Shown in pieces: positions 1 through 41,896 of a stretch of 64,000 bases of DNA. A program made the translations under genes and the position numbers. Source of the DNA: Planctomycetota bacterium (GTDB lineage Bacteria > Planctomycetota > UBA1135 > UBA2386); NCBI GenBank assembly GCA_036274315.1, contig DASUFY010000074.1, positions 698 to 64,697 of the forward strand. Reading direction: 5' to 3'. Each line of letters opens with the position of its first letter. Position 1 is the first letter of the stretch. Under the pieces are notes generated by a model. That model made no database searches and had not been told where the DNA came from. It worked only from the letters and a program-made list of their open reading frames with translations.

Positions 1-410
1 GGTCGCGGCGATCGAACCGCATCTCGAGCTCGTGTCGGTGCGTTCGGCCGAGTTCCGCGACACGCCCGAGCCGGCGATGGCGTGGATCTGCCTGTCGCGC
101 CGTCGTGCGGTCGCGGCGCAGCCTTCGAGCCGGCACGCCTGACGCCGGCGCGTTCGCGCCGATGTCGTCGGCGACCCGGCTCGGTGCCGATCCTGATCCT
201 CGGCAACAGCGACACGAACTGGCAGGGCGCGCCGCTGCCGCTCGACCTCGGTGCGATCGGGTTGGGGGGGTTGCGACCTGCGGGTCAGCGTCGAACTCGC
301 GTTCCTGCTCGTGAACCTCGGCGGCCAGGCCGACTGGTCGTTCGCCGTGCCGGCCGACCCGATGCTGCCCGGAGCGTCGGCCGGGCGCGCGCACCGCGCG
401 ACCGCCGCCG
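1..410 (+). pseudogene. 3' relic of a secreted-protein gene carrying the recurrent C-terminal module; frame is broken at a G7 run and the module is truncated
   Basis: Frame 1 reads ...PILILGNSDTNWQGAPLPLDLGAIGLGG. Frame 2 continues GCDLRVSVELAFLLVNLGGQADWSFAVPADPMLPGAS. Removing one G from 264-270 gives LGAIGLGGCDL, the LG(F/M)xGCxL core seen in six other proteins here. The expected Q...S..L.L.IG tail is absent in all frames before the convergent gene's stop at 411. The 5' end lies outside the window. Confidence 0.4.
264..270. repeat. G7 homopolymer at the frameshift point of the relic gene
   Basis: The sequence gttgggggggttgc has seven consecutive G. The reading frame of the conserved motif switches exactly here. 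Confidence 0.9.
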
Positions 411-2597
411 TCAGCGGATGCGCAGGTGCAGGCCGTAGGTCGTCAGCGCGCCGCCCGCGTTGCTGCCCGGCGCGAAGTAGAGCCACTGCGCGAACAGGTC
501 GGCGGCCGGCACCGACTCCGGCAGCGGCACCTGGATCTCGGCCGAACCGCCCGCACCCGTGACCGCCGCGATCGCCTCGATCCAGCCGGCACCGAGGTCG
601 ACGAGCAGCGTGCAGCCCGTGAAGCCGAGCGAGTCGAGCGGCAGGGAGCCGCTGCCCAGCGACAGACCGACCAGCGCGAGCTGGTTGCCGGGCGCGTTCT
701 CGAGCCGCAACGACGCGAACTCGTTGCCGCGCAGCCAGCGGCCGCCGACGACCGCCGTGGCGCTGCCGCACGCGGGCGCGCCGTAGTAGCTGACGGCGTC
801 GTTGGGGTGCGTGACGACGCGACCCCAGACGTCGCCGTAGGTGGGCTCCAGCATGACGTAGACGGTCTGGAACCAGCCGTGCTCGGGGTCGTAGGCGACG
901 GCGGCGGGGCCCGGCGTCATCGGCGCGATCGGCCCCTGCACCGACTCGGTGCGCAGCACGCGCCCCGTCATGCCGAGCATGCGCGACCGGAGCTCGCCGG
1001 TAGTGGTGTCCGCCACCAGGCTGAGCCAGTGCGAACGTGTCGCCGGATCGACCGCGAGGTCCCTGGCCAGCAGCACGGGCTGGCTCATGGCGACGAGTTC
1101 CTGCGACGCCAGCGCCTGCGGCGCCGCGGCGAGCACGCCCCAGCTGAACCGGCGCGAACGCACTCGCTGCGCCATGCCGTCGGCGGGCAGGCCGCTCACC
1201 GTGTTCTGATCTCGTTCGCCGTAGGTCAACAGGAACTCGGCGCCGCGCCCGTCGACGAGCGGCGCGACCTCGTGCACCGGCAACGACGAACGGTCGCTGA
1301 GCAGCGACGCGCTCGACACGGTCCCTCCGGTCGTGACGCGCTTGGCGACGATGCGGTACTCGGGCACCAGCGTCGAGCCGCTCTGCCAGGCGACGACCCA
1401 TTGCAGGCCGCCGGCGTCGCGCGACACGCTCGGCGCCTTCGCCGTGGTGAACAGGCCGGCGCCGAACGAGAACTGCGTGGTCACGAAGTGCGTCTGCAGG
1501 TCGTAGATCTGGCCGGCCACCGTCGTGCTCCCGCCGAGCGTACGCTCGCAGACCACGAGCACGCCCGCGGCGACCCCCGAGAGGCTGCCGCCCAGACGCG
1601 GCTTGCGATCGGTTGCGCCAGCCGGCTGCCCGAGCTGCACGAGGTTGTTGTCGTAGCCGAGATCGGTGACGGCCCGCGTGTGCAGGAAGCACGCGTTCGC
1701 GCTCTGGCGCGTGAACGCGACGACCCAGTTCTGGCCGCCGTTGGCGGCGACCACGTCGATGTCGAGGATGTGGTCGTTCACCGCGCCGATGGCGTGCAGG
1801 AACTCGAACGACGACAAGTCCGCGGTGGCGGCGTCGACGATCAGGTCGGTCTCGGCGGTCGACCAGTCCAGCTTCGTGACGATGCACGCCGGGTACTGCA
1901 CGTTCGCCGAGGTGTAGGCGACGCGCACGTCGGTGTACGACCAGGCGAGCACGGTGGTCGGTGCGAGCAGCGGATCGACGGTCAGCGGGTAGCGCGCGTT
2001 CGCGAGCAGCGCCGCGGGCAGTTCGATCGCGATGCGTCCGCCGTCGCTGCTGGTCATGAGCGGCGTGCGCACGCCGTCGGCGTCGATCGCGACCGCGGCG
2101 CCGTAGCGGGCCCGCACCTGCCCCGACGGATCGCGCAGCACGAGCGGGCCGTGTGCGGCGCCGCGCGCCTCCGCGTGCAGCGCGCCGTCGACGGCGCCGA
2201 CGATGCGCAGGTCGCCGCGCACTTGCGGCGGGTTCGCGAACACGAAGCTCTGCTCGAGCCCTTCGGTGCGCACGTCGTAGCGTTCGGTCGCGAAGCCGAG
2301 GTCGATGTCGCAGCCGTAACCGTGCGCCTCGGGCCCGTGCGGCGCGGCGACCAGGCCCTGGCCGTCGGCCGCGAACAGGCCGAGCGTGCGCCAGCGGAAC
2401 GGCAGCGACGGTGTGTCGGCATCGACGTGCGGCGTGAACGTCACGCCGTCGGCGAAGCGCACCTTGTAGTCGTGGCCAGCGGCCCAGAGGCCTTGGGCAT
2501 CGCCGGCGAGCGGCGTGACCGGCACGTGGGGCGGCGGCAGCTGCAGCTGCGCGGCGAGAGGAACGGTGAACAACAGGGGCAGGAGCGAACGGTTCAT
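411..2597 (-). CDS. secreted protein (728 aa), full-length paralog of the 26715..29051 product, ending in the recurrent C-terminal module
   Basis: ORF 411..2921 was trimmed to ATG 2597, giving the signal peptide MNRSLLPLLFTVPLAAQ. Blocks GLWAAGHDYKVRF, ERYDVRTEGLEQSFVF and IAIELPAALLANARYPLTVDPL match GLWAATAAYKVSF, ETWDVRDDGLEQSFVV and VVELRVPAAWLATARFPVVVDPL of the paralog. The C-terminus is LPLDSLGFTGCTLLV...FAQWLYF...GLHLRIR. No named family recognised. Confidence 0.85.
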   Translation of the reverse strand: MNRSLLPLLFTVPLAAQLQLPPPHVPVTPLAGDAQGLWAAGHDYKVRFADGVTFTPHVDADTPSLPFRWRTLGLFAADGQGLVAAPHGPEAHGYGCDIDLGFATERYDVRTEGLEQSFVFANPPQVRGDLRIVGAVDGALHAEARGAAHGPLVLRDPSGQVRARYGAAVAIDADGVRTPLMTSSDGGRIAIELPAALLANARYPLTVDPLLAPTTVLAWSYTDVRVAYTSANVQYPACIVTKLDWSTAETDLIVDAATADLSSFEFLHAIGAVNDHILDIDVVAANGGQNWVVAFTRQSANACFLHTRAVTDLGYDNNLVQLGQPAGATDRKPRLGGSLSGVAAGVLVVCERTLGGSTTVAGQIYDLQTHFVTTQFSFGAGLFTTAKAPSVSRDAGGLQWVVAWQSGSTLVPEYRIVAKRVTTGGTVSSASLLSDRSSLPVHEVAPLVDGRGAEFLLTYGERDQNTVSGLPADGMAQRVRSRRFSWGVLAAAPQALASQELVAMSQPVLLARDLAVDPATRSHWLSLVADTTTGELRSRMLGMTGRVLRTESVQGPIAPMTPGPAAVAYDPEHGWFQTVYVMLEPTYGDVWGRVVTHPNDAVSYYGAPACGSATAVVGGRWLRGNEFASLRLENAPGNQLALVGLSLGSGSLPLDSLGFTGCTLLVDLGAGWIEAIAAVTGAGGSAEIQVPLPESVPAADLFAQWLYFAPGSNAGGALTTYGLHLRIR

Positions 2598-2668
2598 GCC
2601 GTTGCCAGGATCGTGGCCGCGCGTTCGGGACACCGCGGCGCCGGTTTTCCGGAGCGGCGGGCGGGAAC

Positions 2669-3133: not shown

Positions 3134-3134
3134 C

Positions 3135-3950
3135 TCACGCCGCGCGCGCACGTTTGCTGCGGCGCGGACGGCCATTGCCGGCGCCGCCGCCGCCGCCGCG
3201 GCGCCACTGCCGCACGGCCTCGCGCAGCGCTTCGCGCTCGTGCGCGGTCAGCGGCCGCAGCTGCCCCGCGGCGAGTTCGCCGAGCTCGACCGGTCCGACG
3301 GCGATGCGGTGCAGGCGCACGACCGTGCGGCCGATCGCCGCCGCCATCCTGCGGATCTGACGGTTCCGCCCTTCGCGGAGCTCCATGATCACGCGCCGGC
3401 CGCCGGCGCCGGGCACGGGCCGCGCGCGCACCGGCCGCAGCTCGGTGCGATCGGGCAGGCGCATGCCAGCCCGGAACGGCGCCAGCTCGGCGTCGCTGAC
3501 GGCGCGATCGAAGGTCACGTCGTAGACCTTCGCCAGTGCCGAGCCGGTGAGCGCCGCGCCGAGCCCGGTGTCGTTGGTCAGCACCAACAGGCCGCTGCTG
3601 TCGCGGTCGAGGCGACCGACCGGGAACAACCACGGCAGATCGGCGGGCAGCAGGTCGTAGATCGTGCGGCGGCCGCGCTCGTCGGCCCGCGTCGTCACGA
3701 CATCGACGGGCTTGTGGAACGCGAACGCGGCCGGTGCTCGGCGCCGCGCCGGCTCGCCGTCGAGCGCGATGCCGCGGTCGGGATCGACCCAGCGATCCGG
3801 ATCGCGGCAGATCCGTCCGTCGACGGCGACGCGCCCGGCCGCGATCGCGGCCCGCGCCAGGCTCCTCGACAACACGCCGAGCTTGCTCAGCGCGCGCGCG
3901 AGGGTGACGCGGTGCGAGGATGCGGGGACGGGACGACGCGGGGCCGCCAT
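3135..3950 (-). CDS. rRNA pseudouridine synthase, RsuA/RluB/RluE/RluF family
   Basis: 271 aa. It has an N-terminal S4-like RNA-binding segment (RVTLARALSKLGVLSRSLARAAIAAGRVAVDG). The synthase core follows, with the catalytic-Asp motif PVGRLDRDSSGLLVLTND and REGRNRQIRRM. Confidence 0.9.
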   Translation of the reverse strand: MAAPRRPVPASSHRVTLARALSKLGVLSRSLARAAIAAGRVAVDGRICRDPDRWVDPDRGIALDGEPARRRAPAAFAFHKPVDVVTTRADERGRRTIYDLLPADLPWLFPVGRLDRDSSGLLVLTNDTGLGAALTGSALAKVYDVTFDRAVSDAELAPFRAGMRLPDRTELRPVRARPVPGAGGRRVIMELREGRNRQIRRMAAAIGRTVVRLHRIAVGPVELGELAAGQLRPLTAHEREALREAVRQWRRGGGGGAGNGRPRRSKRARAA

Positions 3951-4142
3951 GCGAGCGGAACACTACGCGAACGGCGCCGCAGGTGCGCGGCGAGCGGCCG
4001 TGGATCAACCTGCCCTGACCGATGCACCGGCCGTCGGTTGCAACCGCGGCCGTTTCGAAGGAGCCTTCCAGGGGACGCAAGAGGAAACCGTGCTCCCGCC
4101 TGCATCCGGTCGTCGCGATCGCGGGAAGAGAATGGCACCGCG

Positions 4143-7100
4143 ATGTCCCGCTCGGTCGAACACGAACTGCTGCTGCACACCGCCGCCCTGCGGCGCCTCG
4201 CCCGGCAGCTGGTCGGGGCCCAGCACGCCGACGACCTGGTGCAGGACACGGCCCTGCTCGCGCTGCAGACGACGCCGCGGCGGCCGGGGCCGCTCGGCGG
4301 CTGGCTCCGTGGCATCGTGCGCCACCTGGCCATGCACCACCGCCGCGGCGAACTTCGCCGGCGCGCGCGCGAACTGGCGCAGGCGCGGCCCGAAGAGGTG
4401 CCACCCGACCGTTCGGTCGCCGAACGGGACACGCTGCGGCGCCTGAGCGAGGCCGTGTTGTCGCTGCCGGAGCCGTATGGCCAGGTGCTGCTGCAGCGCT
4501 ACCTGCGCGAACGATCGCCGCAGCAGATCGCGCGCGCGAGCGGCGTGCCGCTGGCGACGGTCAAGAGCCAGCTGCAGCGCGGCCTGCAACTGCTGCGCGA
4601 ACGGCTGCAGCGAGACGGCGGCGACTGGCGCGCGGCGCTGGTGGCCGGGTTCGGCATCGAACACGCGCTGCCGATCGCGGCCGCGACGACCTCGGGAGTG
4701 TTGCTCATGTCGACGATGGCCAAGTGGGCCGCCGCGGCCGCGGTGCTGCTGGCGGCGTCGGGTGGACTGTGGTGGGCGCTGCGACCACCGATGCCGGCGG
4801 TGCGCGAGCCGGTCGACGCGATGTCCGTTGCCGCGGCCGGCACCGAAGCGGGAGCGGCGAGGCCGACCGCGGGCACGATCGGGCCGGTGCCGGCCGCGTT
4901 GCAGCGCGTTGCGGCGCCGCCCGCGCCGGCGCGAGGCAACGGCGCCGTGCTGCGCGGCCGTTGCGTCGATGACCATGGGCCGCTGGCCGGCGTCGCCGTC
5001 GAACTGCACGGCGCCCGCGCCGAGGGCACGGCCGACGAGTCGATCGACCTGCACGCGGCCACCGGCGCCGATGGCAGCTTCGCCTTCACGTTCGCTCCCG
5101 TGACCGGACAGTCCTTCCGCCTGCAGCTCCAGGCCGAGGAAATGGCGGACTCGGAGGCCACGTGGAACCACATCGCGGCCGATGCCACCATCGATCTCGG
5201 CGACGTGCTGCTGCTGCGTGCGGTCGCCGTGCGCGGCAGGGTCTTCGACGAACAGGGTGCGCCCGTGCCGGGCACGTCGGTGCACCTGCGCCGCGGCGAC
5301 CGCGACGACGGACCGGCGCGGCCGCGCCCCTACCAATCGGCGACGACCCGCGACGACGGCACGTTCGCGTGCGGGTTCGGCCTGGCGAGCGGAAGCTGGC
5401 AAGCCGACGTGCAGGCGCGCGAACTGGTGGCCGATGGCACTGTGCTGCTGCAGGCTCCGGCCGCCGATCTGCGACTCGTCGTGCGCACCGTGAGCGCATC
5501 GCACACGATCGCCGGCGTCGCCACGGACGAAACGGGGGCGCCGCTGGCCAGAGTGGCGATCCGAACCGTCCCGACCCGCGATGGGGCGCTGCACAGGACG
5601 CGGCGCGACGGCAGCTTCGAGCTGATCCGCGGGCGGGACGCCGGCGACGAGCCCGTCCGGCTCGCGTTCGAGAAGCCCGGCTACGAGACCGAAGAGACCG
5701 AAGCGGTCGCCTGGGGCAGCCGCGACCTGCGCGTCGTGCTGCACGCCAACGGCGGGCAGATCGTGCACGTCGTTCGCCTCGACGACGGCGCGCCGGTCGA
5801 GCACTGCACGCTGCACGCGCTGTGGCTCGCGCAACCGGGCGCCGCCCACAGCAACGAGAACCACGCGACCGTGCGCGGACCCTTTGCTCGAGGCCGCGCG
5901 GTCCTGCACCTGCGCAGCGGCGAGTACCGGCTGCTCGTCGAGCCCGACGACGCGCAGCTCGACTGCAGCGAGCTGTTGCCGTTCACCGTCGCGGGAGCCG
6001 ATGCCTCGACCGTCGTGCGGTTGCCGCCGCGGCTCGAACGGCGCGTCCGCGTGCAGTACCGGGACGGCTCACCGGTCGCCGGCGCACTCGTGCAGCGCTG
6101 CCTGCCACCGCTGCGGCCCGAACGCTTCCTCGATGTGTGCATGCCCCTGGACCCGTGGCTGCTCCAGGCCAACTGGGACAACGTGTCGCTGCGGCTCGAA
6201 GCCGGCATCACGGACGATCGAGGCGAGCTGCTGCTGCACGGCAGCTGCGGTCGCAGCGACACCCTGGTGCTGCCGGGCCCGGGACACGCGCCGTGCGGGG
6301 TGCCGTTCGGAGTCGAGGGCGACGGGCCGCAAGTGATCACCGTCGCCGCCGGCGCGCACCTGCGCGGCCGATGCACGCCGCCCGCCAGCGTGGCGGCGCT
6401 GCGCGCGCCGGCGCTGCGGCTGCGCGGCGATGGGGCGGCCAGATTCCCCGATCTGGATCGACCGCCGATCGCGATCGATGCCGAAGGTCGCTTCGACGTC
6501 GAGGGAGCACCGCCCGGCGCGTGGCGCATCGAACTGCGGCTGACGACGGTCAACGACGGTGGCGGCACGTTCACGTCCGGAGTGCCGGTCGGTCGCGTCG
6601 ATCTGCGCGAGGGCGAGACGGCGTTCGCGACGGTCGACCTGGCGCCGCTGCAGTGCGAGGAGGGCACGCTCGACGTCATGGTGCTGCACAACGGCGAGCC
6701 GTTGCGCAACGCCTTCGTGATGCCCATGGCGGTCGCGGCACCGGACAGCGTCAGCCTCGCCGGCCGCGCATCGTGGACGAGCCGCATCGACGCCGAGGGA
6801 CACATGCACAGCGAGCGCTGGCAGGGTCGCTACCGGTTGCTGTGGAGTCCGAAAGGCGTGCAAGGGCCAGACGCGCGCAGCCTGCGCGCGGACGAGATCC
6901 TGGAGGTCGTGCCGGGGCAGACGACGAAGGGCACGGTGCACTTCCGCAGCGGCACGCTGCGCGTGCACGTTCGCGATGCCGCGCAACGACCGCTGCCCGG
7001 CATCGCGGTCGAGCTCGTCGATGCGACCGGCGAGTGGTGCGCGACGCTGCCGCCAACCGACCGCGACGGCGCGGCCGAGCAGCTCGTCGAAGCCGGAACG

Positions 7101-7283
7101 TTCACGTGCCGCGCGCTGCCGGCGGAGCTGCTGGCGCAGAATCCGCAGCGCGCATCGCAACGCCCGCGGCAGCACGGCGAGGACCCACTGGCGCCGTCGC
7201 TGCTGCCCCTCGGCGAGGTGCTCGTGCAGCAGGGGGCCACGACGCAGGTGGTGTTGCAGCTGCCGCCGGCGAAGCCGCACTGA
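4143..7283 (+). CDS. ECF sigma-70 domain fused to a TM helix and a roughly 800-aa repeat ectodomain (1046 aa)
   Basis: ORF 3240..7283 was trimmed to ATG 4143 (MSRSVEHELLL). It has sigma region 2 (ADDLVQDTALLAL) and the region 4 HTH (SPQQIARASGVPLATVKSQLQRGLQLLRERL). A hydrophobic helix WAAAAAVLLAASGGLWWAL follows. After that come repeated units such as LRGRCVDDHGPLAGVAVEL...GADGSFAFTF and VRGRVFDEQGAPVPGTSVHL...RDDGTFACGF, a carboxypeptidase-regulatory-like beta-sandwich pattern. Confidence 0.85.
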   Translation: MSRSVEHELLLHTAALRRLARQLVGAQHADDLVQDTALLALQTTPRRPGPLGGWLRGIVRHLAMHHRRGELRRRARELAQARPEEVPPDRSVAERDTLRRLSEAVLSLPEPYGQVLLQRYLRERSPQQIARASGVPLATVKSQLQRGLQLLRERLQRDGGDWRAALVAGFGIEHALPIAAATTSGVLLMSTMAKWAAAAAVLLAASGGLWWALRPPMPAVREPVDAMSVAAAGTEAGAARPTAGTIGPVPAALQRVAAPPAPARGNGAVLRGRCVDDHGPLAGVAVELHGARAEGTADESIDLHAATGADGSFAFTFAPVTGQSFRLQLQAEEMADSEATWNHIAADATIDLGDVLLLRAVAVRGRVFDEQGAPVPGTSVHLRRGDRDDGPARPRPYQSATTRDDGTFACGFGLASGSWQADVQARELVADGTVLLQAPAADLRLVVRTVSASHTIAGVATDETGAPLARVAIRTVPTRDGALHRTRRDGSFELIRGRDAGDEPVRLAFEKPGYETEETEAVAWGSRDLRVVLHANGGQIVHVVRLDDGAPVEHCTLHALWLAQPGAAHSNENHATVRGPFARGRAVLHLRSGEYRLLVEPDDAQLDCSELLPFTVAGADASTVVRLPPRLERRVRVQYRDGSPVAGALVQRCLPPLRPERFLDVCMPLDPWLLQANWDNVSLRLEAGITDDRGELLLHGSCGRSDTLVLPGPGHAPCGVPFGVEGDGPQVITVAAGAHLRGRCTPPASVAALRAPALRLRGDGAARFPDLDRPPIAIDAEGRFDVEGAPPGAWRIELRLTTVNDGGGTFTSGVPVGRVDLREGETAFATVDLAPLQCEEGTLDVMVLHNGEPLRNAFVMPMAVAAPDSVSLAGRASWTSRIDAEGHMHSERWQGRYRLLWSPKGVQGPDARSLRADEILEVVPGQTTKGTVHFRSGTLRVHVRDAAQRPLPGIAVELVDATGEWCATLPPTDRDGAAEQLVEAGTFTCRALPAELLAQNPQRASQRPRQHGEDPLAPSLLPLGEVLVQQGATTQVVLQLPPAKPH

Positions 7284-7413
7284 CCGCGCGTCGTCGGGGC
7301 TCGGGGAGACATGTTCCCGCGCCTCGACGCAAAGCGGATCCGCGGTTGCAACGCCGACGACGCAGGTCGACACTGGGCTCGTTCGATGTCCTCCGTATCG
7401 AGGAGCCGGTGAC

Positions 7414-8574: not shown

Positions 8575-9942
8575 ATGATCCGGCGATCGAGGTGCCCCAT
8601 GCGCGTGCTGCTCTGTGCGACTCTCTTGACCCACTCCATCGCGGCCCAGGTCGGCATCTGGGCTGCCGCGCCCGCGACCGTGATGCCGCCGCACCAAGAA
8701 CAGCAGCTCGTCTTCGATCCGGTGCGGCAGGTCATCAGCATGGTCGGCGGGCAGACGATCGGCAACAACTCGTCCCCGTTGGCCCTGTGGGACTACGTCG
8801 GCGGCACGTGGGTGGACCGCACGCCCTCCGGCGCGCCGGTCGTCGAAGGCGTGCGCGCGACGTTCCACGGTGGGCTCGGCAAGGTCGTCGCGCTCGTCGA
8901 ACGAAGCCAGAGCTTCCTCGAGCTGTACGCCTGGACCGGTTCGACCTGGAGCCTGCTGCCGGGCGCGCCGCCGCTGTTGCGCACGCGCTTCGGGTTCACG
9001 TACGACGCGATGCGCGACCGGCTCGTCGTGTTCGGCGGGATCCGCGCTGGTCAGGTCGTGTCCGAGACCTGGGAGTGGGACGGCGCTGTCTGGCAGCAGC
9101 TGTCGTCAGGCGGACCGCCCGGGAGGATCGATCCCGCGATGCAGTTCGACAGCGTGCGCCACGTGTGCGTCCTGTTCGGCGGCAATCGCGAACCGTCGAC
9201 GCTGAACTACGGCGACACCTGGGAATGGAACGGTTTCTACTGGCTCGAGCACTTCGGCATCCCGGGCCCGTCGCCGCGCACCCGGGCGATGTCGACGTTC
9301 GACCAGGACCGCGGCCGCATGGTCCTCTATGGCGGCGTCGCCGCGGCCAATCCGACAGACACGTGGGAGTGGGACGGCTCGGTATGGGCGCAGATGCAGA
9401 CGACCATGAATCCCGGTCACGTCATCGGCGCGATGGCGTACGACCCGACCACCGCCAGTGTGCTGCTGCTGTGGCAGAATGGGACCTGGCAATACGCGCC
9501 CGTGCCGCCGGCACCTTCCACGTTCACCGCGTTCGGCGACGGTTGCGGCGGCACGCTGGGTGTGCCGGTGCTGGCGGCCGCGGGCACGTCTCTGCCGATG
9601 CTTGGCACGACGTTCCATGCCGAACTGACCAACATTCCCGGGTCGGTGTTCAACGTGCCGATCGGCTTCGCCGCTTTCGACGCGACGACGTGGAACGGGG
9701 TGCCGCTGCCGATTCCGCTCGATCCGTTGGGCTTCACGGGCTGCGAGGTGTGGATCGCGCCCGCCGTCTCGCAGCCGCTACCGAACAACGCCGGCGTCGC
9801 CCCGTGGGACATCGCGATCCCGCTCCACTTCAACCTGGTCGGGCTCGATCTCTACCTCCAAGGTGCGGTGCTGGCACCGGGCGCCAACCCGGGCGGCTTC
9901 CTGTTCAGCAACGCGGGCCACGTCGTCGTCGGCACACCGTAG
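8575..9942 (+). CDS. secreted Kelch-repeat beta-propeller protein with the recurrent C-terminal module (455 aa)
   Basis: ATG 8575 (alternative 8599) gives the signal MRVLLCATLLTHSIAAQ. The propeller signature repeats: LALWDYVGGTW, ETWEWDGAVWQQL, DTWEWNGFYWLEH, DTWEWDGSVWAQM. The tail is FGDGCGG...IPLDPLGFTGCEVWI...YLQGAVLAPGANPGGFLFSNAGHVVVGTP. Confidence 0.85.
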   Translation: MIRRSRCPMRVLLCATLLTHSIAAQVGIWAAAPATVMPPHQEQQLVFDPVRQVISMVGGQTIGNNSSPLALWDYVGGTWVDRTPSGAPVVEGVRATFHGGLGKVVALVERSQSFLELYAWTGSTWSLLPGAPPLLRTRFGFTYDAMRDRLVVFGGIRAGQVVSETWEWDGAVWQQLSSGGPPGRIDPAMQFDSVRHVCVLFGGNREPSTLNYGDTWEWNGFYWLEHFGIPGPSPRTRAMSTFDQDRGRMVLYGGVAAANPTDTWEWDGSVWAQMQTTMNPGHVIGAMAYDPTTASVLLLWQNGTWQYAPVPPAPSTFTAFGDGCGGTLGVPVLAAAGTSLPMLGTTFHAELTNIPGSVFNVPIGFAAFDATTWNGVPLPIPLDPLGFTGCEVWIAPAVSQPLPNNAGVAPWDIAIPLHFNLVGLDLYLQGAVLAPGANPGGFLFSNAGHVVVGTP

Positions 9943-11245: not shown

Positions 11246-11251
11246 GGAACC

Positions 11252-13819
11252 TCAGGGTTGGTCGCTGCGCGCGCAGCGGAAGCCGCAGGCGCAGCGCACG
11301 TGGTCGTGGATGCCATCGGTGCGCACGTTGAACGGCAGGCCCCGCTTGCGCGTGTCCCACCAGGTCCCTCCTTGGATGAACCGTTCGTTCGCCCAGTAGC
11401 GCAGACTGTCGCCGGTGCGGCTGACCCCGACGCTCTCGACCCACTCCTCGACGTTGCCGAGCATGTGGTGCACGCCTTCGGGCGTCGCGGCGTCGGGCAT
11501 CGAGCGCACGGGGGTCGCGAGCCGGACGAAGGCGCTGACCTGTGCCGGCCAGCCGAGGTCGGCCGCGTGCGGATCCTCGCGCTCGAGTGCGCCGCGAACC
11601 TCCGCGTCCTCGGTGGGGGCATACGGCAGCCAGCGATTCTGTTTGCCCCTCGCCGCCCACAGCCACTCGGCGCGCGTCGGCAAGCGCTTGCCGCGCCATT
11701 CCGCATAGGCGCGCGCATCCTCCCAGCTGACGAACACGGCCGGCAACTCCGCGACCTCGGGATGCTCGCTGGCGTGCGCGTCGAGCAGCGACCACGCCAC
11801 GTTCATCGGCCGTTGCGTGCGCTGCACGAACTCGCGGAACTCGCCGATGCTGACCTCGTACCGATCGAGCCAGAACGCGGCCACCGTCGCGACCCGGCCA
11901 CTGCCCGGTCCGGGCGGCGCCAGCGGTTCGGGCTGCAGCAGGTCGCCGCCCTGGATGCGGACCATGTCCGAGCCCGGTTCGGTCGGGCTCGCCGTGCCCG
12001 CGACCACGCACTGCACGACGTGGTTCCAGCGGCCGACGTCGAGCATCCGGGTCAGCTCTCGCAGGCCGCCTGGCAGGTGGAACTGCAAGCGCCAGTAGCC
12101 GGCTGGCAACGCGTGCTGCTCGACCGGCAACGCGCCGAGTTCCACGGTTGGACCGAGCTCGTCGGTGAAGGGGTCGATCCTGCGGGCGGTCGCCGTGCCG
12201 GCGAGCGCGGCGTCGTCGGGGCCGCGCGCGGTCAGCGACACGCGCGCATCGAAGGGCCGGTCCGGAAACGCAGTCTGCACTTCGCGGTCGGTCGGGAACA
12301 GGTGGCGCGCGCGCCCGAGCCGGTGGGTGCTCTCGAACAAGGTCTGGAAGCGCGCCGGATCGTCCGCCACTTCGTCGGTGGGGTTGGTGGCCGAGTGCAA
12401 CAGCGCAAGCCCGCTCTGCAACAGGTCGCGGCGCATTGAGTCGAAGCGCGCGGCCGCCCGATGGACCGGACTCGAGTCGAGCAAGTCGGGGTCTCGCATC
12501 GCCTGCTCGAGTTGCTCGAGCCCGGCCTGCAGTTCGCGATCCGTCAGCGGTTGCCAGTCGGCGATCGCCAGCAGTCGTTCGAGCGCGGCCACGGTCTGTC
12601 GCCGGCCTTGGGCTCGCGTCACCGAACTCGTGGCGAAGCTCGCGCCGGTGGCCGCGACCAGGACCAGCGCGGCGGCACTCAGCGGGCGCCAATGCCGCCG
12701 GCTCCAGTTCTGGAGTCGGCGCCAGACCGGAGTCGGTCGCGCGTGGATGGCGTCGTGCGCGAGGAAGCGCTCGAGGTCGTCGCGCAGCGCCGCCGCGGTC
12801 GGGTATCGATCGGCGACGTCCTTCGCCATCGCCACGCTGCAGATCGTCTCCAGATCGCGCGGTACGCGCTTGTTCCGCTTGCGCACCGGCGGTGCCACAC
12901 TCTGCTGGATCTGGCTGAGGACCTCGTGGTCCGTCAGGCCCTCGAACGGCCGCGTCAGCGTCAGCAGCTCGTAGAGCACCACACCGAGCGAGTACACGTC
13001 CGTGCGATGATCGACGCGATCCTTGCCGCGGAGGCGGGCCTGCTCGGGGCTCATGTAGTAGAGCGAGCCCGGCGCCTCACCGGTGCGCGTGAGCGTGCCG
13101 TAGCGCGCGGTCCGGGCGATGCCGAAGTCGGCCACCTTGACGTGACAGTGGCGGTCGAGCAGCAGGTTCTGCGGCTTGACGTCGCGGTGCACGATGCCGG
13201 CCCGATGGGCGCAGTCGAGTGCGTCGGCCGCATCGGCGCAGATGCGGGCGACGGCCGTGACGTAGCCCGAGTTCGCGAAGGCCGGCAGCAGCGGCGCGGG
13301 ATCGTTCGGCAAACGATCTCTCTGCAGGTCGATCTCGCGCCCCATGTCGTGGCCGTCCACGTACTCCATCGCGAACCAGTGCGTGGCGCCCTCGCTGCCG
13401 TCGGTGAAGACCTGCACGATGTGCGGATGGTTCAACTGCGCGGCGGCGCGCGGCTCGCGGTGGAAGCGCTCGATCTGGCGCTCGGAAGTCGCCAGCGACT
13501 CCGTCAGCACCTTGAGCGCGACCTTGCGGTCGAGCGACCGCTGCGTCGCCAGGTACACGGGCAGGTTGCCGCGCCCCAGTTCGCGTTCGATCACGAAGTC
13601 CTGCAGGCCCGGCGGCTCGGCCTTGGCCGCCGCGGCATGCAGGTCCACGGGCCTCAGGAAGTCGTCGCTGGGATTGGCCGCGAGCAGCGCCATCGCCTCG
13701 GCCCGCATGGCCGCGTCCTCGCCGCAAGCGTCCGCGACGAACGCCGCGCGTTGCTCGACCGGCAGGCCAAGGGCCTGGCCGATGATCTCCTGCATGCGTT
13801 GGAAGCGTGGATCGCTCAC
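11252..13819 (-). CDS. Ser/Thr protein kinase, single TM, with a C-terminal FGE-sulfatase (SUMF1-like) ectodomain
   Basis: GTG 13819 overlaps the sigma gene's TGA (GTGA); the alternative start is ATG 13795. Kinase motifs are ALKVL, HRDVKPQNLLL, DFGIAR and SPEQ. The TM segment is LSAAALVLVAATGASFA. The C-terminus carries FGE-type blocks FWLDRYEVSIGEFREFV, VSWEDARAYAEWRGKRLPTRAEW, HMLGNVEEWV and CGFRCA. Confidence 0.9.
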   Translation of the reverse strand: MSDPRFQRMQEIIGQALGLPVEQRAAFVADACGEDAAMRAEAMALLAANPSDDFLRPVDLHAAAAKAEPPGLQDFVIERELGRGNLPVYLATQRSLDRKVALKVLTESLATSERQIERFHREPRAAAQLNHPHIVQVFTDGSEGATHWFAMEYVDGHDMGREIDLQRDRLPNDPAPLLPAFANSGYVTAVARICADAADALDCAHRAGIVHRDVKPQNLLLDRHCHVKVADFGIARTARYGTLTRTGEAPGSLYYMSPEQARLRGKDRVDHRTDVYSLGVVLYELLTLTRPFEGLTDHEVLSQIQQSVAPPVRKRNKRVPRDLETICSVAMAKDVADRYPTAAALRDDLERFLAHDAIHARPTPVWRRLQNWSRRHWRPLSAAALVLVAATGASFATSSVTRAQGRRQTVAALERLLAIADWQPLTDRELQAGLEQLEQAMRDPDLLDSSPVHRAAARFDSMRRDLLQSGLALLHSATNPTDEVADDPARFQTLFESTHRLGRARHLFPTDREVQTAFPDRPFDARVSLTARGPDDAALAGTATARRIDPFTDELGPTVELGALPVEQHALPAGYWRLQFHLPGGLRELTRMLDVGRWNHVVQCVVAGTASPTEPGSDMVRIQGGDLLQPEPLAPPGPGSGRVATVAAFWLDRYEVSIGEFREFVQRTQRPMNVAWSLLDAHASEHPEVAELPAVFVSWEDARAYAEWRGKRLPTRAEWLWAARGKQNRWLPYAPTEDAEVRGALEREDPHAADLGWPAQVSAFVRLATPVRSMPDAATPEGVHHMLGNVEEWVESVGVSRTGDSLRYWANERFIQGGTWWDTRKRGLPFNVRTDGIHDHVRCACGFRCARSDQP

Positions 13820-14412
13820 GACAGTTCGCGCTTGAGCCACGCGCGCGCCGCGCGCAGTCGGCGTTCGGTGGTGCTCACGCTGAGTTCGAGGTTGTGCGCG
13901 CACTGCGTGACCGTCAGGCCGAGGAAGAAGTGCAGATCGACGATCTGCGCGCCTTCGTGGTCCAGCGCGTAGAGCCGCTCGAGCGACTCGTGCAGCGCGA
14001 CGCAGTCGCTGCCGTCGGTGTGACGTTGCACGGCGTCGGCGACCTCGTCGAGATAGAGCCGCCGGCCCGGCGGCCGGCGTTTCCCGGAGTGCTTGCGCCG
14101 GATGTGATCGACGAGGATCTGGCGCATGGCGCGGGCGGCGACGCGCAGGAAGTGCTCGTGGTTGTTCCAGACCTTGCCCTCGGCGCCGCACAGCTTGATC
14201 CACGCCTCGTGCACGAGCGCCGTCGGCTGCATCGTCGCGGGCCGTCCGCGGGCAACGAGACAGCCGGCGATTGTCCGCAGCTCCAGGTAGATGTCGTGGA
14301 ACAACTCCGCCTGACGGTCGGGGTCGCCAGCTCGCGGGTCGAAGGCACCCGGATCAGGGTCGTGCGTCGGCATCGGCTGGCGTCTCCGGGCGGCCAAGCA
14401 GGCAACGGTCAT
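13816..14412 (-). CDS. ECF sigma factor of the kinase-associated type (Sigma70_ECF / TIGR02999-like; ECF43-like)
   Basis: LFHDIYLELRTIAGCLVARGRPATMQPTALVHEAWIKL...WNNHEHFLRVAARAMRQILVDHIRRKHSGKR matches my memory of this family. Region 4 is IVDLHFFLGLTVTQCAHNLELSVSTTERRLRAARAWL. The start may be ATG 14412 or ATG 14373 (GGAG lies 10 nt upstream of the latter). Confidence 0.9.
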   Translation of the reverse strand: MTVACLAARRRQPMPTHDPDPGAFDPRAGDPDRQAELFHDIYLELRTIAGCLVARGRPATMQPTALVHEAWIKLCGAEGKVWNNHEHFLRVAARAMRQILVDHIRRKHSGKRRPPGRRLYLDEVADAVQRHTDGSDCVALHESLERLYALDHEGAQIVDLHFFLGLTVTQCAHNLELSVSTTERRLRAARAWLKRELS

Positions 14413-23064: not shown

Positions 23065-23333
23065 GGCGGATCGCGCGGGTCTCGGTGTACCCGTTCTGTT
23101 CCCGCGGTGCCGAAAGCGATGTCCGGGCGCGTGGAAACTTCGTGCGCGCGACGTGCGGTCCCATCGCCGAACTCGTGTAACGGCGGACGCGTTGCGCGGC
23201 TTGCTCGGCAGGTCCACCCGGAATCCGAACCACCGCGTCCGTGCCTTCGGCTGCCGCCTTCCGGCGCACGCCGGAGCTCCGGCCCCGTGTACGCCCGCGG
23301 CGCGGCGCCGCGCAGCCCGATACCATCCTCCCG

Positions 23334-29299: not shown

Positions 29300-29890
29300 G
29301 TGCACACTCGCGACCACGAGTGGTTCGAACAGGCTCGGCGCGGCGACAGCGGCGCGCTCGAACGGCTCGTCGAGAGCTACCTGCCGCAGCTGCACGCGTT
29401 CGTGCGCGTGCGCCTGGGCGGCGTCGTGCGGGCGCGCGAATCGAGCATGGACATCGTGCAGTCGGCCTGCCGCGAGCTGCTCGCCGACCCGAGCCGGCAC
29501 GAGTTCCGCGGCGAGGCCCGCTTCCGCGGCTGGTTGTTCACGATCGCGCTCAACAAGCTGCGCGAGAAGCACCGCTTCCACGGCCGCGAGATGCGCAGCC
29601 CCGTGCGTGAGAACGACGCCGGCGTCGACGACCTGCTGCCCGCGGCGAGCCTGCTGACGCCGAGTGTCGACGCGATCGGCCGTGAGACCGCGGCGGCGCT
29701 CGACGCCGCGATGCAGGCTCTGAGCGAGGAGCACCGCGAGGTCATCACGATGGCGCGCATCGCCCAGCTGCCGTACGAGGTCATCGCCGAGCTCATGGGC
29801 CGCAGCGAGCAGGCCGTGCGGCAGTTGCTCGTGCGTGCGTTGCGCCGGCTCGCCGAGGAGCTGCGGGCCCGGGGCGTCGCTTCGGACTGA
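29300..29890 (+). CDS. ECF sigma factor (196 aa), paralog of the 26048..26656 product
   Basis: The start is GTG 29300. Motifs are YLPQLHAFVRVRLG...ESSMDIVQSACRELL (region 2), FRGWLFTIALNKL, and REVITMARIAQLPYEVIAELMGRSEQAVRQLLVRAL (region 4). Confidence 0.9.
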   Translation: MHTRDHEWFEQARRGDSGALERLVESYLPQLHAFVRVRLGGVVRARESSMDIVQSACRELLADPSRHEFRGEARFRGWLFTIALNKLREKHRFHGREMRSPVRENDAGVDDLLPAASLLTPSVDAIGRETAAALDAAMQALSEEHREVITMARIAQLPYEVIAELMGRSEQAVRQLLVRALRRLAEELRARGVASD

Positions 29891-30022: not shown

Positions 30023-31063
30023 ATGAACCGGTCTCCCTCGACCTCGCTCTGGACACGGCTGCCCGCACGTGCCGCCGCGGCCGTCGTACTGCTCGGCGCC
30101 GCGGCGCCCGTCGCGGCCCAGTCCGTGATCTACACCACGCGCACCGGCGGCAACATCGTCGCCTGCGGCCCGCTCACCGGCGGACCGCTCGTTCATCACA
30201 CCTTCGGCACGCCGATCGCCACCAACGACTCGATCGCCGTCAGCGATCCCGGCACCGCGACCCTGCCCGCGAGCGCCGCCGCGGCGCAGTTGGACGCGAT
30301 CGCGACCTCGACCACGTTCTCGCTCTCGATGGCCGGCACGGCCACGCGCACGGCACCCGCGGGCACGTTCATCACCGCGCTCGCCGACGGCCGCGACGTC
30401 TGGGAGTTCACGCTCGCCGCACCGGTGCGCTTCACGCTGACCGCGTCGCTGAACGCGTCGAGCACCGACGCCACGGTGCCGCCGCAGCACTTCACGTTCG
30501 CGGGTGCGATCGTGCCCGACCCGGGTGCCCCGCCGCTGCCGTACCAGCAGACGATCCAGGCCCCGGGGTCGTTCACGCTCGCGGCGACCGGCACGCTGCT
30601 GCCGGGCCAGTACTTCGTGAGTGTGTTCGGACGCGTCGAGAGCACGTCGTCGCCGTTCACCAGCTCGTACTCCAACTCGCTGACGCTGACGTTCCAGCCG
30701 GCCGCGAACGCGACCGCGCGACAGGCGTTCGGCAACACGAACTCGTACACGTGCAGCCTGCCGGTGCTCGGCCAGACGTGGAACGCGACCGTCGACGTCG
30801 GGCTCACGGGTCACTCGTTCGCGATCGTCTTCGCGTCGCTGCTGCCGGGCCAGGTGACGCTCGGTCCCGGCTTCACCGTGCTGCTCGGCGGTGCGCCGGT
30901 GGAGTTCCTGCCGATCGCGCCGGGCCCGCACGCGACCTACGCGGTGGTGATGCCGTCCGACCCGACGCTGGCGGGCTTCCAGCTGTCGACGCAGGCATTG
31001 CACTTCGGCGTCCTGCCGTCGCTCGCGCTGTCGAACGCGCAGGACCTGACGCTCGGGTTCTGA
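30023..31063 (+). CDS. secreted protein (346 aa) with a divergent copy of the recurrent C-terminal module
   Basis: ORF 29933..31063 was trimmed to ATG 30023 (MNRSPSTSLWTRLPARAAAAVVLLGAAAPVAAQ). The tail is SYTCSLPVLGQTW...ATYAVVMPSDPTLAGFQLSTQALHFGVLPSLALSNAQDLTLGF. The central GC motif is missing. The gene lies directly downstream of the sigma gene. Confidence 0.8.
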   Translation: MNRSPSTSLWTRLPARAAAAVVLLGAAAPVAAQSVIYTTRTGGNIVACGPLTGGPLVHHTFGTPIATNDSIAVSDPGTATLPASAAAAQLDAIATSTTFSLSMAGTATRTAPAGTFITALADGRDVWEFTLAAPVRFTLTASLNASSTDATVPPQHFTFAGAIVPDPGAPPLPYQQTIQAPGSFTLAATGTLLPGQYFVSVFGRVESTSSPFTSSYSNSLTLTFQPAANATARQAFGNTNSYTCSLPVLGQTWNATVDVGLTGHSFAIVFASLLPGQVTLGPGFTVLLGGAPVEFLPIAPGPHATYAVVMPSDPTLAGFQLSTQALHFGVLPSLALSNAQDLTLGF

Positions 31064-36443: not shown

Positions 36444-36550
36444 CCGGCGATGCGGCGAAGGACTCCGGGATCCACGCGATGCAGGGCGTTGGCCGGCTCG
36501 TTCGGCGGCTGCACCACCGACAGACTGCTTCGCGGCGGCCCCGCACGGCG

Positions 36551-37531
36551 TCAGCCGCGGGCCGGGCGCCAGCGCGCCCCGCGGTGCAGCAGCACCGAAT
36601 CCAGCACCGAGACCGCCGCGGCGGCGACGAGCAGCCACATGCCGGCGAGCGGCGTCGGGCTCGCGAGGGCGTCGAGTTTCGTGAACACGACCAGCAGCGC
36701 CAGGACGAAGACGTCGAGCATCGACAGGCCGTCGAGCAGGAGCAGACGCTCGCGCCACTTGGCGTGCTGCGGGCGCACGAGCCGCAGCACGAACAGCGCG
36801 AGCAGACGCAGTGTCGGCAGCACCACGACGAACAGGAGCAGCGTGCTGCCGAGCACCCAATCGCCGCGTTGCAGCAGCTGGCCGACACCCCGCAGGAGCG
36901 AGTAGCGATTCCCCCAGAAGAAGCCCTTTTCGACGTCGAGCAGCGGCAACGACAGGCCGGCGCCGTACAGGACCGCGGCCGGCACGGTCAGCCAGAGTCC
37001 CCGTCGCGTGAACGGGCGTCGCGGTTGGCGCCGTCGGCTGCGCACGATCGCGCTCAGCAGCAGGATCGCCACGAGCGACAGCAGGATCGACGCGAGGTAG
37101 ACGTACGCGCCGGGCAGCGCGGCCGCCTGGCTCAGCAGGCCGAGCTGCACCGTGCCGACGAGCACGGCGATGACGAACGCGTCGAGCAGCGACCATTTGC
37201 CCAGTAGCTCGAGCCAGTCGACGATCTCGACTCGCGTCGGCTCGCGCGTGGGCACGAACCACAGCACGAGGATGCCGCCGAGCTTGATCGCCGGGAACGC
37301 GACCGAGAAACCGAACAGCAGCAGCGCCAACAGGATGTTGCCCGAGGTTGCGAAGCTCCAGATGCCGGAAACCACCGAGAACGTCTCGTCGCCGACCAGG
37401 AACAAGTTGTCGAAAGTGAGCGCCGGCCGCGTCACCCCGAATACGAGCAACGCAAGCGCGAGACCCGCGACGATCGGCACGTCGACGCGGCGCGGGGACT
37501 CCAGGCGAAGGGATCGGAGGTCGTTCACCAT
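36551..37531 (-). CDS. PqiA-family integral membrane protein (326 aa)
   Basis: ORF 36551..37738 was trimmed to ATG 37531. It has multiple TM segments in two similar halves (…GNILLALLLFGFSVAFPAIKL… and …GSTLLLFVVVLPTLRLLALFVL…, each followed by LLD.F/LDVFV). No MCE (PqiB-like) partner is adjacent. Confidence 0.65.
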   Translation of the reverse strand: MVNDLRSLRLESPRRVDVPIVAGLALALLVFGVTRPALTFDNLFLVGDETFSVVSGIWSFATSGNILLALLLFGFSVAFPAIKLGGILVLWFVPTREPTRVEIVDWLELLGKWSLLDAFVIAVLVGTVQLGLLSQAAALPGAYVYLASILLSLVAILLLSAIVRSRRRQPRRPFTRRGLWLTVPAAVLYGAGLSLPLLDVEKGFFWGNRYSLLRGVGQLLQRGDWVLGSTLLLFVVVLPTLRLLALFVLRLVRPQHAKWRERLLLLDGLSMLDVFVLALLVVFTKLDALASPTPLAGMWLLVAAAAVSVLDSVLLHRGARWRPARG

Positions 37532-37626
37532 GCCGCGGCCCCATGGTAATCGACTCGGGGCCGTGCGCCGATGTCGATCCCGAACCGCGCGAGCATCGCG
37601 CGACGCGGCCCTCGACCGCGGGTCGG

Positions 37627-38280
37627 ATGGCGATCCACGGGCCCACGTTCGCCGACTTCCTCGCGAGGTTCGCGGCCGCCGCCGCCGACTACGCCGGCAT
37701 GTATCTTCGCACGAAGGGTGTCGACGCGACGCCGGCACAGCGCGAACAGGCGATCGCCGACCTCGAGAAGGTGCTCGGCATGACCGAGGACGACTCCATC
37801 GTCGAACGCATCCACCGCGCGATCTGGGAGGAGCAGCACCTCGGCATCGGCAAGGCGGCGCCCGACATCGAGGGCGAGGACCTCGACGGCGTGGCGTTCA
37901 AGCTCAGCGACCATCGCGGCAAGGTGGTCATGCTCACCTTCTGGGGCGATTGGTGAGGCCCCTGCCGGGCCATGTACCCGCACGAGCGGTCGCTCGTGCA
38001 CGATCTCGCCGACGAGCCGTTCGTCCTGATCGGCGTCAACAGCGACGAGGACAAGGATGCGCTGAAGCCGCGGCTCGCCGAGGAGCGCATCTCGTGGCGC
38101 AGCTCCAGGAACGGTCCCGAGGGCACCGAGGGGCCGATCGCCAAGGCCTGGAACGTGACCGGCTGGCCCATGGTCTACGTCATCGACCACGACGGAGTGA
38201 TCCGGCACAAGAGCCACGGCGGCGAGGCCATGGACGCGGCGCTGAGGAAGTGCATCGAGCTGGCCAACATGAATCGCTGA
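37627..38280 (+). CDS. thioredoxin-fold thiol:disulfide oxidoreductase (TlpA/redoxin-like) with an in-frame TGA at the CxxC position; candidate selenoprotein (motif W-U-G-P-C)
   Basis: Track ORFs 37543..37956 and 37972..38280 are in the same frame and are separated only by TGA 37954-37956. Read-through gives GKAAPDIEGEDLDGVAFKLSDHRGKVVMLTFWGDW-[TGA]-GPCRAMYPHERSLVHDLADEPFVLIGVNSD...GWPMVYVIDHDGVIRH. This is the canonical redoxin layout with TGA where the first Cys of WCxPC sits. The start is ATG 37627 (alternative 37543). No signal peptide is seen. Confidence 0.7.
37980..37999 (+). promoter_or_regulatory. candidate bacterial SECIS-type hairpin (8-bp stem, GGUC tetraloop) downstream of the in-frame UGA
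   Basis: G-CACGAGC-GGUC-GCUCGUG-C was read directly from the sequence. The stem starts 24 nt after the UGA and the loop starts 31 nt after it. The GGUC loop matches my recollection of the apical loop of the E. coli fdhF SECIS. Confidence 0.5.
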
Positions 38281-38541
38281 CAGGCGCGACGCTGTGAATG
38301 GCGCCCCGGAGCCACTGGCTGAACCCGCTGATGGCGCTGCTTGGTGCCGCCGGCCACGTGCGGTCCAGCGGTAGTCGGGTGGAGTGGCGAGCGCGCCTCG
38401 AGCGCCCGCTTGACGCGCAATCGCCGCTTGGGGAACGTGCCCTCGCGGCCGGGTACCGGGACACGAGTTGGAGTCGGCTCGCTCTCCGGTGCACCCATCG
38501 TGGCGCCGCGCCCGGTCCAGGCAGCGGTCCCCTCCACCCAC

Positions 38542-39642: not shown

Positions 39643-39705
39643 GATCGCCGTGCGCCGGCGCCGCTGCCGATTCCACCGACCGCTGGCGCCCGGTGGCGAC
39701 GTAGG

Positions 39706-40740: not shown

Positions 40741-40795
40741 GCCGGGCCTCTCGTCGGCGCTGCGCCCGGTCCCTGCCTGCGGCCGCCGCCGGGGG

Positions 40796-41896
40796 TCAGA
40801 ACCCGATGCGGATCTCGGCGCCGCTGGAGAACGACAGGTTGCCTGGCACCAGTTCGAACACGACGTGCTGCGCGTAGAAGAACTGGCCGCCGAAGCCGGG
40901 CGGGATCGGGATCGGCGTGACGAAGATGCCGCTGTTGTCGACGGTGCCGCCGAGCATCACGTCCGGGCTGACCAGCAGGCGGCAGCCCGAGGTGCCGAAG
41001 ATCGGGTCGACGTTCAAGGGCAGGCTCGCGCCGCCGCTGCTCGTGCGCGAGGCGCCGAAGCACAGGATGCCGAAGCTGTTGTGCAGGTGGAACGTCGACA
41101 GCAGCTGGTAACCGGTGCCCGGGTACGGCAGGAAGGTGTGGCTGATGGCCGGGGTGCCATTGGTGCCGGCGCAGCCGGTCCCGAACGGCGTGGTCGAGCC
41201 GAAGCGTTCCTCGCAGCCGCGCAGGTCGGTCCAACCGGGGCTGCTGCCGATCAGGGTCAGGCTGCCGTTGACCGTGTTGACCTCGTAGAGTTCGTTGCGC
41301 CCGGCGAGCACGCGGCCGTCGCTCATCGTCGTCAGGAACTGCACGTCGACGCCGCCGCTGCCCATGAACGGATGCAGGTCGCTGGCGGCCCCGTTCGTCG
41401 GGTTGACGTTGATCAGGCCGTTGGTGGCGTTCCAGGCCAGCAGCGTGGCGCCGTGCCGCGTCAGCGCCTGCACGCCGGTGAAGCCGAGGCTGCCGATGGT
41501 CGTGAACGCGCCGGTCGTCGTGTCGATGCGCATCAGCACGTCGCTGGTGCTGCCGGGCACGACCGCCAACAGGTCGCCGCTCGCCGTCGTCGCCATGCCG
41601 CGCACGTCGAAGCCGGTGTTGAAGAACACGCGCGTGCCGGCGTTGGTGCGTTCGTCGAAGGTGGCGATGTGGAACAGAGGGGCGAACACGGTGCCCGTCC
41701 GTTCACTCGTCCAGATCGTGCCGCCGAAGCGCGCCATGGCGTTGCAGCCGGTGAGGCCGGAAGACGCCGAGAAGCCCGAGATGCCCGAAGTGGAGTGGAT
41801 GGCGGTGGCGGTGCCGTTGAACGACAGCGCGATCAGATCCTGGGCCGGAGCCGGCGCGATGCCCTAGAGCGCCGCGAACAGGAAGCGGGTGTTCAT
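40796..41896 (-). pseudogene. secreted protein with the recurrent C-terminal module, interrupted by an in-frame TAG in the signal peptide (codon 11)
   Basis: Track ORF 40796..41737 starts at an internal Met with no signal peptide. The same frame extended upstream reads ATG 41896 MNTRFLFAAL-TAG(41864-41866)-GIAPAPAQDLIALSFNGTATAIHSTSG...NAMARFGG. That is a normal signal peptide and mature N-terminus broken by one stop. The tail is FGTGCAG...VDPIFGTSGCRLLV...FYAQHVVFELVPGNLSFSSGAEIRIGF. Confidence 0.65.

Follow-up and report, generated by a model that had tools for sequence, protein, structure and literature searches.

The stretch analysed here, hereafter the window, comprises 64,000 nucleotides of contig DASUFY010000074.1 (assembly GCA_036274315.1, positions 698 to 64,697) from a metagenome-assembled genome (MAG) of a Planctomycetota bacterium. 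The G+C content of the window is about 71%, and its proteins carry the locus tags VFZ65_05170 to VFZ65_05335. As listed in Table 1, six genes (A to F) in the window encode the same module, in gene E a divergent form of it, at the C-terminus of their products, behind upstream regions referred to below as passengers; a relic preserves a fragment of the module. The module proteins are annotated as hypothetical by NCBI. The MAG encodes further module proteins outside this contig, among them those of the neighbouring genes VFZ65_07370 and VFZ65_07375.

A first-pass annotation, made from the letters of the window alone, had described a module of about 110 aa with three conserved blocks (A, B and C, the last running to the final residue) shared by six signal-peptide proteins and a relic. 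Translation of the seven intervals recovered all of the peptide blocks that it had quoted. The shared module was confirmed in five canonical tails (A, B, C, D and F) with a profile built from 43 family members and run over all six frames of the window. BLASTP also linked the tails independently of their passengers (B with F, 8e-8; A with B, 1e-5; B with C, 1e-4). Proteins A and D are paralogous over their full length, with 30% identity (2e-61), and the signal peptide of protein A is MNRSLLPLLFTVPLAAQ. Nothing else comparable was detected in the six-frame scan, in which the relic and protein E were the sole weaker matches. The length had been underestimated: the module extends over 125-140 aa, and its first element is a beta-strand just ahead of the FGxGC motif.

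Table 1. Module genes and other features of the window (profile E values from the 43-member module profile)
Feature	Coordinates	Strand	Module (profile E)	Description
Relic	175..376	+		pseudogene fragment of ~70 aa; profile positions 40-107
Gene A	411..2597	-	~414-791 (4.9e-23)	728 aa; HEX5051139.1 / VFZ65_05170; 'hypothetical'; passenger unassigned; canonical module
ECF-sigma/CarboxypepD_reg protein	3240..7283	+		large
Gene B	8575..9942	+	~9520-9939, aa 316-455 (7e-49)	455 aa; signal peptide, Kelch propeller and module
Ser/Thr protein kinase	11252..14203	-		C-terminal FGE-sulfatase domain
Gene C	17598..19832	+	~19461-19829 (3.1e-28)	744 aa; signal peptide; passenger without Pfam match
ECF-sigma/CarboxypepD_reg protein	20101..23445	-		large
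Gene D	26715..29051	+	~28671-29048 (1.1e-25)	778 aa; signal peptide; paralogue of A
ECF sigma gene	29300..29890			directly upstream of gene E
Gene E	30023..31063	+	~30731-31057, C-terminal ~110 aa (0.011)	346 aa; VFZ65_05265; divergent module form
TlpA-type gene	37420..38280	+		thioredoxin-like/AhpC-TSA; in-frame TGA
Gene F	40796..41896	-	~40799-41194 (3.4e-32)	DUF4394-like passenger; canonical module
Orn/Lys/Arg decarboxylase (OKR_DC_1) open reading frame	51746..55255	-		1,168 aa

Three of the copies differ from their first description. Protein E lacks the FGxGC start (block A), the PLP..GMPGC loop (block B) and both conserved cysteines. As a single sequence it was missed by one search and scored only weakly in the six-frame scan (Table 1), and an hhalign comparison with the module gave 76%. 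When its orthologue family (28 matches) was compared with the module profile, the two aligned with 95.8% probability (E 6.5e-9) over 108 columns and to the last residue; protein E is therefore retained as a divergent, cysteine-less member. Gene F encodes a canonical module, but the signal peptide attributed to it is interrupted by an in-frame TAG at codon 11 (41864-41866; MNTRFLFAAL*GIAPAPAQ), while the rest of the gene is intact. The NCBI model of this gene (HEX5051172.1) starts downstream and has no signal peptide. It is possible that gene F is a recent pseudogene or that the MAG contains an assembly or consensus error at this site. The relic, first placed at 1..410, is real but is only a fragment. 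A +1 frameshift, located in a run of seven G at about 262-268, divides it, so that 175-270 corresponds to profile positions 40-72 in frame 1 and 260-376 to positions 69-107 in frame 2, each with E of about 4e-7. Both ends have been lost, together with blocks A and C, and the fragment adjoins the 3' end of gene A, which lies on the opposite strand.

Size, range and architecture of the module family

An exhaustive HMMER search of 1.84 billion representatives clustered at 50% identity found 6,818 cluster representatives with the module at E ≤ 1e-3, and 748 at E ≤ 1e-10. A word-indexed protein search with module alignments returned 6 and 12 matches; it is insensitive for this family, and the HMMER result was therefore taken as the census. 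No Pfam or NCBIfam match was found for the tails of the six window proteins (E ≤ 1), for the module region of 103 family members (E ≤ 1e-3) or for 43 isolated modules (E ≤ 10). A sequence search of the PDB with the module profile was likewise empty at E ≤ 10, and a literature search found no description of the domain. The initial impression that the module matches no described family was thus upheld.

For a survey of genomes, the motif PLPxxLxxxGMPGC was turned into a degenerate DNA pattern, and a scan of 185,579 species genomes with it gave at least 120 loci. A module was verified at 118 of 120 loci, with 146 modules in all; the other two loci were chance matches in Alphaproteobacteria (Devosia and Methylobacterium). 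About 55 MAGs contributed the verified loci; the label was Planctomycetota for nearly all of them, and there was no isolate among them. These MAGs originated from lakes (including CL500-15), rivers, groundwater, activated sludge and soil. Several MAGs contained at least five to six motif loci. Since the strict motif was present in only 30 of 146 unbiased modules, and in none of the copies in the window, dozens of copies per genome is a reasonable inference. The genes also cluster locally, with 5-7 in the window, four within 20 kb in locus L121, and VFZ65_07370 next to VFZ65_07375. Expansion within genomes, one of the checks set beforehand, and restriction to one lineage were both found, with several copies per MAG and nearly all of them in Planctomycetota. 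We conclude that the module family is real, very large, unannotated and lineage-restricted.

A few of the verified MAGs had generic or evidently automatic labels. The G+C content of module contigs is about 70%, yet some of them bear the label 'uncultured candidatus Brocadiaceae', 'Candidatus Kuenenia stuttgartiensis' or 'Luminiphilus sp.' (L020, L021, L026, L030 and others; L119; L070), and the contig binned as Luminiphilus was 3.9 kb long with 73% G+C. The G+C content of anammox genomes is much lower than 70%, so these labels look like artefacts of automatic taxonomy or binning.

Of the 6,818 matches, the best 150 were covered. The module ended 0-3 residues from the C-terminus in 158 of 159 retrieved database proteins, and among genomic copies with a stop codon it ended at most 4 residues from the stop in 132 of 143. 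The claim that the module is always terminal, set beforehand as a test, thus proved correct in the overwhelming majority of cases. In six of the 143 genomic copies, about 30 aa followed the module, and about four were true fusions with large domains downstream, such as Trypsin_2-module-FGE-sulfatase. In protein P0151 the module was located near the N-terminus. Each protein carried one copy. A module-only protein of 149 aa was encoded in L121/L122 (10001-10450) on contigs of at least 41 kb; it consists of a short hydrophobic N-terminus followed directly by FGPYGAGC...IGL, and its gene is the first of three module genes in a row.

A subset of module proteins had 30-37 extra residues after the module (two genes in L033; L030, L046, L085 and L102; L121 at 10629-11690 and 11962-13029), as in ...NGVARVFASPGQTSGSVGLLLGLVIGLEGS. 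This extension may be an added beta-hairpin that marks a distinct subtype.

The passengers came from more than 12 unrelated Pfam families, and a signal-peptide-like hydrophobic N-terminus was present in 84 of 94 complete members, in agreement with the proposal that the passengers are heterogeneous and secreted. Kelch propellers accounted for 53 of 103 passengers. Other passengers were LamG, C-type lectin, BNR/Sortilin/Ycf48-like propellers, PQQ-type GSDH, DUF7948, DUF5122, subtilases (S8), M36 peptidases and GDSL lipases. An 'AQ' cleavage-like motif at positions 13-42 was found in 59 of 94 members, compared with 2 of 94 in a control window. The 30 residues preceding the module were not rich in Pro or Thr, which indicates that there is no obvious linker. 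Two other readings of these proteins were rejected. One was that they are lipoproteins, as a lipobox was found in only 1 of 94 members, and the other that the tail is an outer-membrane beta-signal, as the last residue was Arg or Lys in 73 of 159 proteins and aromatic in only 16 of 159.

Sequence conservation, predicted fold and related domains

The consensus of the module is FGxGCxGxxGxPxL...LPxxG...GxSxxxWxGxPLPxxLxxxGMPGCxLxVxPD...IPxxPxLxGxxxYxQxxVxDPGANPxGxxxSNGxxxxIG. The invariant residues, in the numbering of gene B, are C324, G386, C390 and Q429. The two cysteines (Cys9 and Cys75 of the module) occurred together in 274 of 277 distinct modules and were missing jointly in the protein E subtype; this joint loss fits a disulfide pair. 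The polar residues Gln114, Asn123, Ser/Asn130-131 and Asp119 were invariant or nearly so in all subtypes, which suggests a shared functional constraint.

An AlphaFold2 model of the gene B module was made from a 43-sequence alignment. The isolated module was modelled as an eight-strand, all-beta, Ig-like beta-sandwich with a mean predicted local distance difference test score (pLDDT) of 96.7 and a predicted template modelling score (pTM) of 0.89. The first-pass annotation had suggested a disulfide-stabilised beta domain. The all-beta model and the two essentially invariant cysteines bear out this suggestion in part; the cysteines would form a disulfide, judging from their invariance, their joint loss in the E subfamily and the model. 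The 50 matches listed by a Foldseek search against the PDB were all generic Ig-like sandwiches, with template modelling (TM) scores of 0.35-0.47 and no match at E < 1e-3. Among these neighbours were NPC2/ML proteins, macroglobulin domains, transglutaminase C-terminal barrels and VHH. By its predicted structure the module belongs to the Ig-like/E-set beta-sandwich class, at the level of fold only and with no sequence family. The model of the full-length Kelch protein B (pLDDT 92, pTM 0.84) comprised a signal-peptide helix, the propeller, and the sandwich abutting the last blade.

Heterogeneous exported proteins that share one C-terminal beta-sandwich are a known kind of arrangement, as in the C-terminal domains (CTDs) of the type IX secretion system (T9SS), PPC domains and dockerins. 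Judged by sequence, the module family belongs to none of these, and it is found in a different phylum. The T9SS CTD (Por_Secre_tail, PF18962 / TIGR04183; Bacteroidota) is comparable in several respects: it too is an Ig-like beta-sandwich that closes many unrelated Sec-exported proteins at their very C-terminus, it is confined to a lineage, and it is present in dozens of copies in a genome. However, the module has no sequence similarity to it, is about 130 aa long compared with 70-100 aa, contains two invariant cysteines, is joined to the passenger without a linker, and occurs occasionally in internal, stand-alone and extended forms. Its host phylum is the Planctomycetota, which is not known to have a T9SS.

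With dockerin/cohesin, SLH and PPC systems the module shares a mostly C-terminal, single-copy position on diverse secreted enzymes, in which non-terminal placement is occasionally tolerated, and like them it could tether enzymes to one common partner. It differs from dockerins and SLH domains in its predicted beta-sandwich, as opposed to a Ca-binding EF-hand pair or an SLH helix bundle, and no Pfam match to any of these families, PPC among them, was found. In contrast to the dockerin/cohesin system, no scaffold protein with repeated receptor domains was identified for it. Dockerin (PF00404) itself was rejected, with no Pfam match and an all-beta model. PEP-CTERM/LPXTG, GlyGly-CTERM and MYXO-CTERM were also ruled out, as the modelled tail is globular and all-beta without a terminal hydrophobic helix and no NCBIfam model matched.

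E-set or Ig-like domains that follow propellers (galactose oxidase domain 3, DUF1929; the Kelch+Ig part of outer-arm dynein heavy chains) have the same propeller-then-sandwich order as the Kelch subfamily, whereas the module is also found on non-propeller passengers. Most whole-protein fold matches of protein B spanned the propeller only. The top ones were dynein heavy chains, with a Kelch+Ig N-terminus, which aligned over more columns with a root-mean-square deviation (RMSD) of about 14 Å; the domain arrangement is not shared. A galactose-oxidase-like reading of the Kelch proteins was rejected, as none of the 53 Kelch members matched DUF1929 (PF09118) and galactose oxidase was absent among the 50 whole-protein fold matches listed for B. 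The ML/NPC2 domain, a small disulfide-containing Ig-like sandwich, was the top Foldseek match of the isolated module, but with a TM score of 0.34-0.40, an RMSD of about 10 Å, E 2.5e-3 and 9-13% identity the resemblance is one of generic fold only.

Genomic surroundings and other features of the window

Neighbour clustering over the 118 loci revealed one real recurrent neighbour, the ECF-sigma/CarboxypepD_reg protein (ECF, extracytoplasmic function). It was found within a few kb of module genes at 10 loci (including L061), and in addition twice in the window and in L121 (13057-17130). The other clusters were shadow open reading frames opposite the module genes. Planctomycete genomes contain many ECF sigma genes, so this neighbour is not clearly enriched over background. 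These proteins, of about 1,100-1,350 aa, contain sigma-70 regions 2 and 4 plus multiple CarboxypepD_reg/Big_1 repeats and appear as a single gene in public data. They could represent fusions of a sigma factor with an extracytoplasmic sensor domain.

The window also encodes two further ECF sigma genes, Ser/Thr kinases, a PP2C phosphatase, an MBOAT/AlgX pair, acyl- and methyltransferases, PqiA and efflux components. No sortase-like, dedicated peptidase or translocon gene was found in the window. T9SS machinery (PorU/PorV/SprA and others) was not found either, whether there or in flanking sequence of 8-20 kb at 120 loci. Upstream of the six genes in the window, 8-mers (at most one mismatch) were shared no more than among random window segments.

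Several other features of the window were noted. The FGE-sulfatase (formylglycine-generating-enzyme-like) domain occurs in unusual fusions, at the C-terminus of the Ser/Thr protein kinase in Table 1 and, in another MAG, in the Trypsin_2-module-FGE-sulfatase protein (L049, 2-1669). In the TlpA-type gene, an in-frame TGA at 37954-37956 takes the place of the first Cys of the redox motif (...LTFWGDW-TGA-GPC...), giving WUGPC instead of WCGPC. The gene is better read as encoding a candidate selenocysteine protein than as a pseudogene. Starting 26 nt past this TGA is an 8-bp hairpin with the loop GGUC; its stability is not significant (z -1.1), and Rfam gave no match in the window. In the OKR_DC_1 open reading frame, the catalytic domain begins only at about residue 515, so that either the protein has a long, unassigned N-terminal extension or the reading frame is over-long in GC-rich DNA.

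Possible roles of the module

The reading that we tentatively favour, from the sequence pattern and the predicted fold, is that the module is an undescribed, lineage-restricted C-terminal Ig-like domain that serves as a permanently attached address or anchor and binds a shared envelope partner. The observed N-terminal signal peptide, of the Sec type in most members, would carry each protein across the cytoplasmic membrane. The module would then fold outside the cytoplasm, where the disulfide between the invariant cysteines would staple the N-terminal strand to the core. Finally, the loops PLPxxLxxxGMPGC and DPGANPxG..SN, together with the invariant Gln, would bind one shared partner in the envelope or at the cell surface. 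In this way dozens of passengers per genome, such as propeller lectin-like proteins, proteases, lipases and dehydrogenases, would be retained or displayed together. A permanent binding or anchoring domain fits better than a cleaved tag because there is no linker, a module-only protein exists, and internal fusions and extensions of about 30 aa occur.

Several observations weigh against an address or anchor. No partner or machinery was found, and no peptidase, sortase or outer-membrane gene recurred beside the module genes at the 118 loci. The only recurrent neighbour is regulatory and not clearly enriched over background. The conserved residues are mostly Gly and Pro in loops and could be purely structural. 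Modules of the A/D type and of the Kelch type fall into separate groups according to their passengers, which indicates that the pattern is partly paralogue expansion and not free shuffling. The lineage restriction is derived from the verified loci, the taxonomy of the roughly 6,600 weaker matches lying outside the survey.

Somewhat unlikely, in our judgement, is a substrate-binding domain for glycan or lipid, similar to a carbohydrate-binding module (CBM) or an ML domain and directed at external material such as algal or particle polymers. Stand-alone and internal copies, as in CBMs, and the tight, linker-less packing on the passenger are consistent with such a role. The lipid-binding NPC2/ML domain is among the best, though weak, fold matches, hydrolases and lectin-type domains are among the passengers, and the host lineage comes from particle-rich fresh waters, sludge and soil. 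However, it is not usual for CBM-type domains to reach the last residue in more than 90% of proteins or to be limited to a single copy. Glycoside hydrolases are nearly absent, and about half of the passengers are Kelch propellers without an enzyme domain. The fold matches themselves are generic (TM 0.35-0.47, none at E < 1e-3).

We consider it improbable that the module is a cleavable secretion signal like the T9SS CTD, served by an outer-membrane translocon and a sortase-like peptidase with possible attachment to a surface glycolipid. The Ig-like sandwich of a similar size class, the extreme C-terminal position on heterogeneous signal-peptide proteins, the high copy number and the lineage restriction all agree with such a signal. 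On the other hand, neither Por_Secre_tail nor any NCBIfam sorting model matched in sequence, and T9SS CTD structures were absent among the 50 fold matches listed. There is no flexible linker; the last Kelch blade leads straight into the module, and the model of both domains is rigid (pTM 0.84). A module-only protein, genuine internal fusions such as Trypsin_2-module-FGE-sulfatase, and variants with 30-34 aa past the module do not fit a cleaved signal either, and no peptidase or outer-membrane gene recurs nearby. The sorting or secretion tag first proposed for the module was not supported, and no co-occurring peptidase, sortase or outer-membrane partner was found beside the module genes. We also give little credence to the proposal that the module acts as a tag recognised by a new envelope sorting pathway of Planctomycetota, an independently evolved functional analogue of T9SS-CTD/PorU. 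In that case a dedicated outer-membrane or cell-surface apparatus would recognise the folded, disulfide-bonded domain and export or covalently attach dozens of cargoes per cell.

A structural or oligomerisation cap without a shared partner, spread by paralogue expansion of a few ancestral fusions, is very unlikely. In its favour, modules co-vary with passenger type, many passengers are beta-propellers, beside which Ig-like caps are common, and Gly, Pro and Cys make up most of the conserved positions. Against it, the module also occurs alone and on unrelated non-propeller folds (S8, M36, GDSL, LamG and C-type lectin), and the polar residues named above are (nearly) invariant across subtypes.

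Little is understood of how Planctomycetota assemble and fill their unusual envelope, and there was no cultured member of this clade among the genomes found. The module is found in thousands of public protein clusters and probably on dozens of exported proteins in each genome, yet no entry for it was found in Pfam, NCBIfam or the PDB. Defining it annotates many 'hypothetical' proteins as extracytoplasmic, and its profile hidden Markov model provides a handle for phylogenetic profiling toward the partner or machinery. If the partner is a translocon or sortase, it would represent a new sorting system. The module also delimits the set of surface or secreted proteins in a lineage, CL500-15 included, that is abundant in fresh water, sludge and soil.

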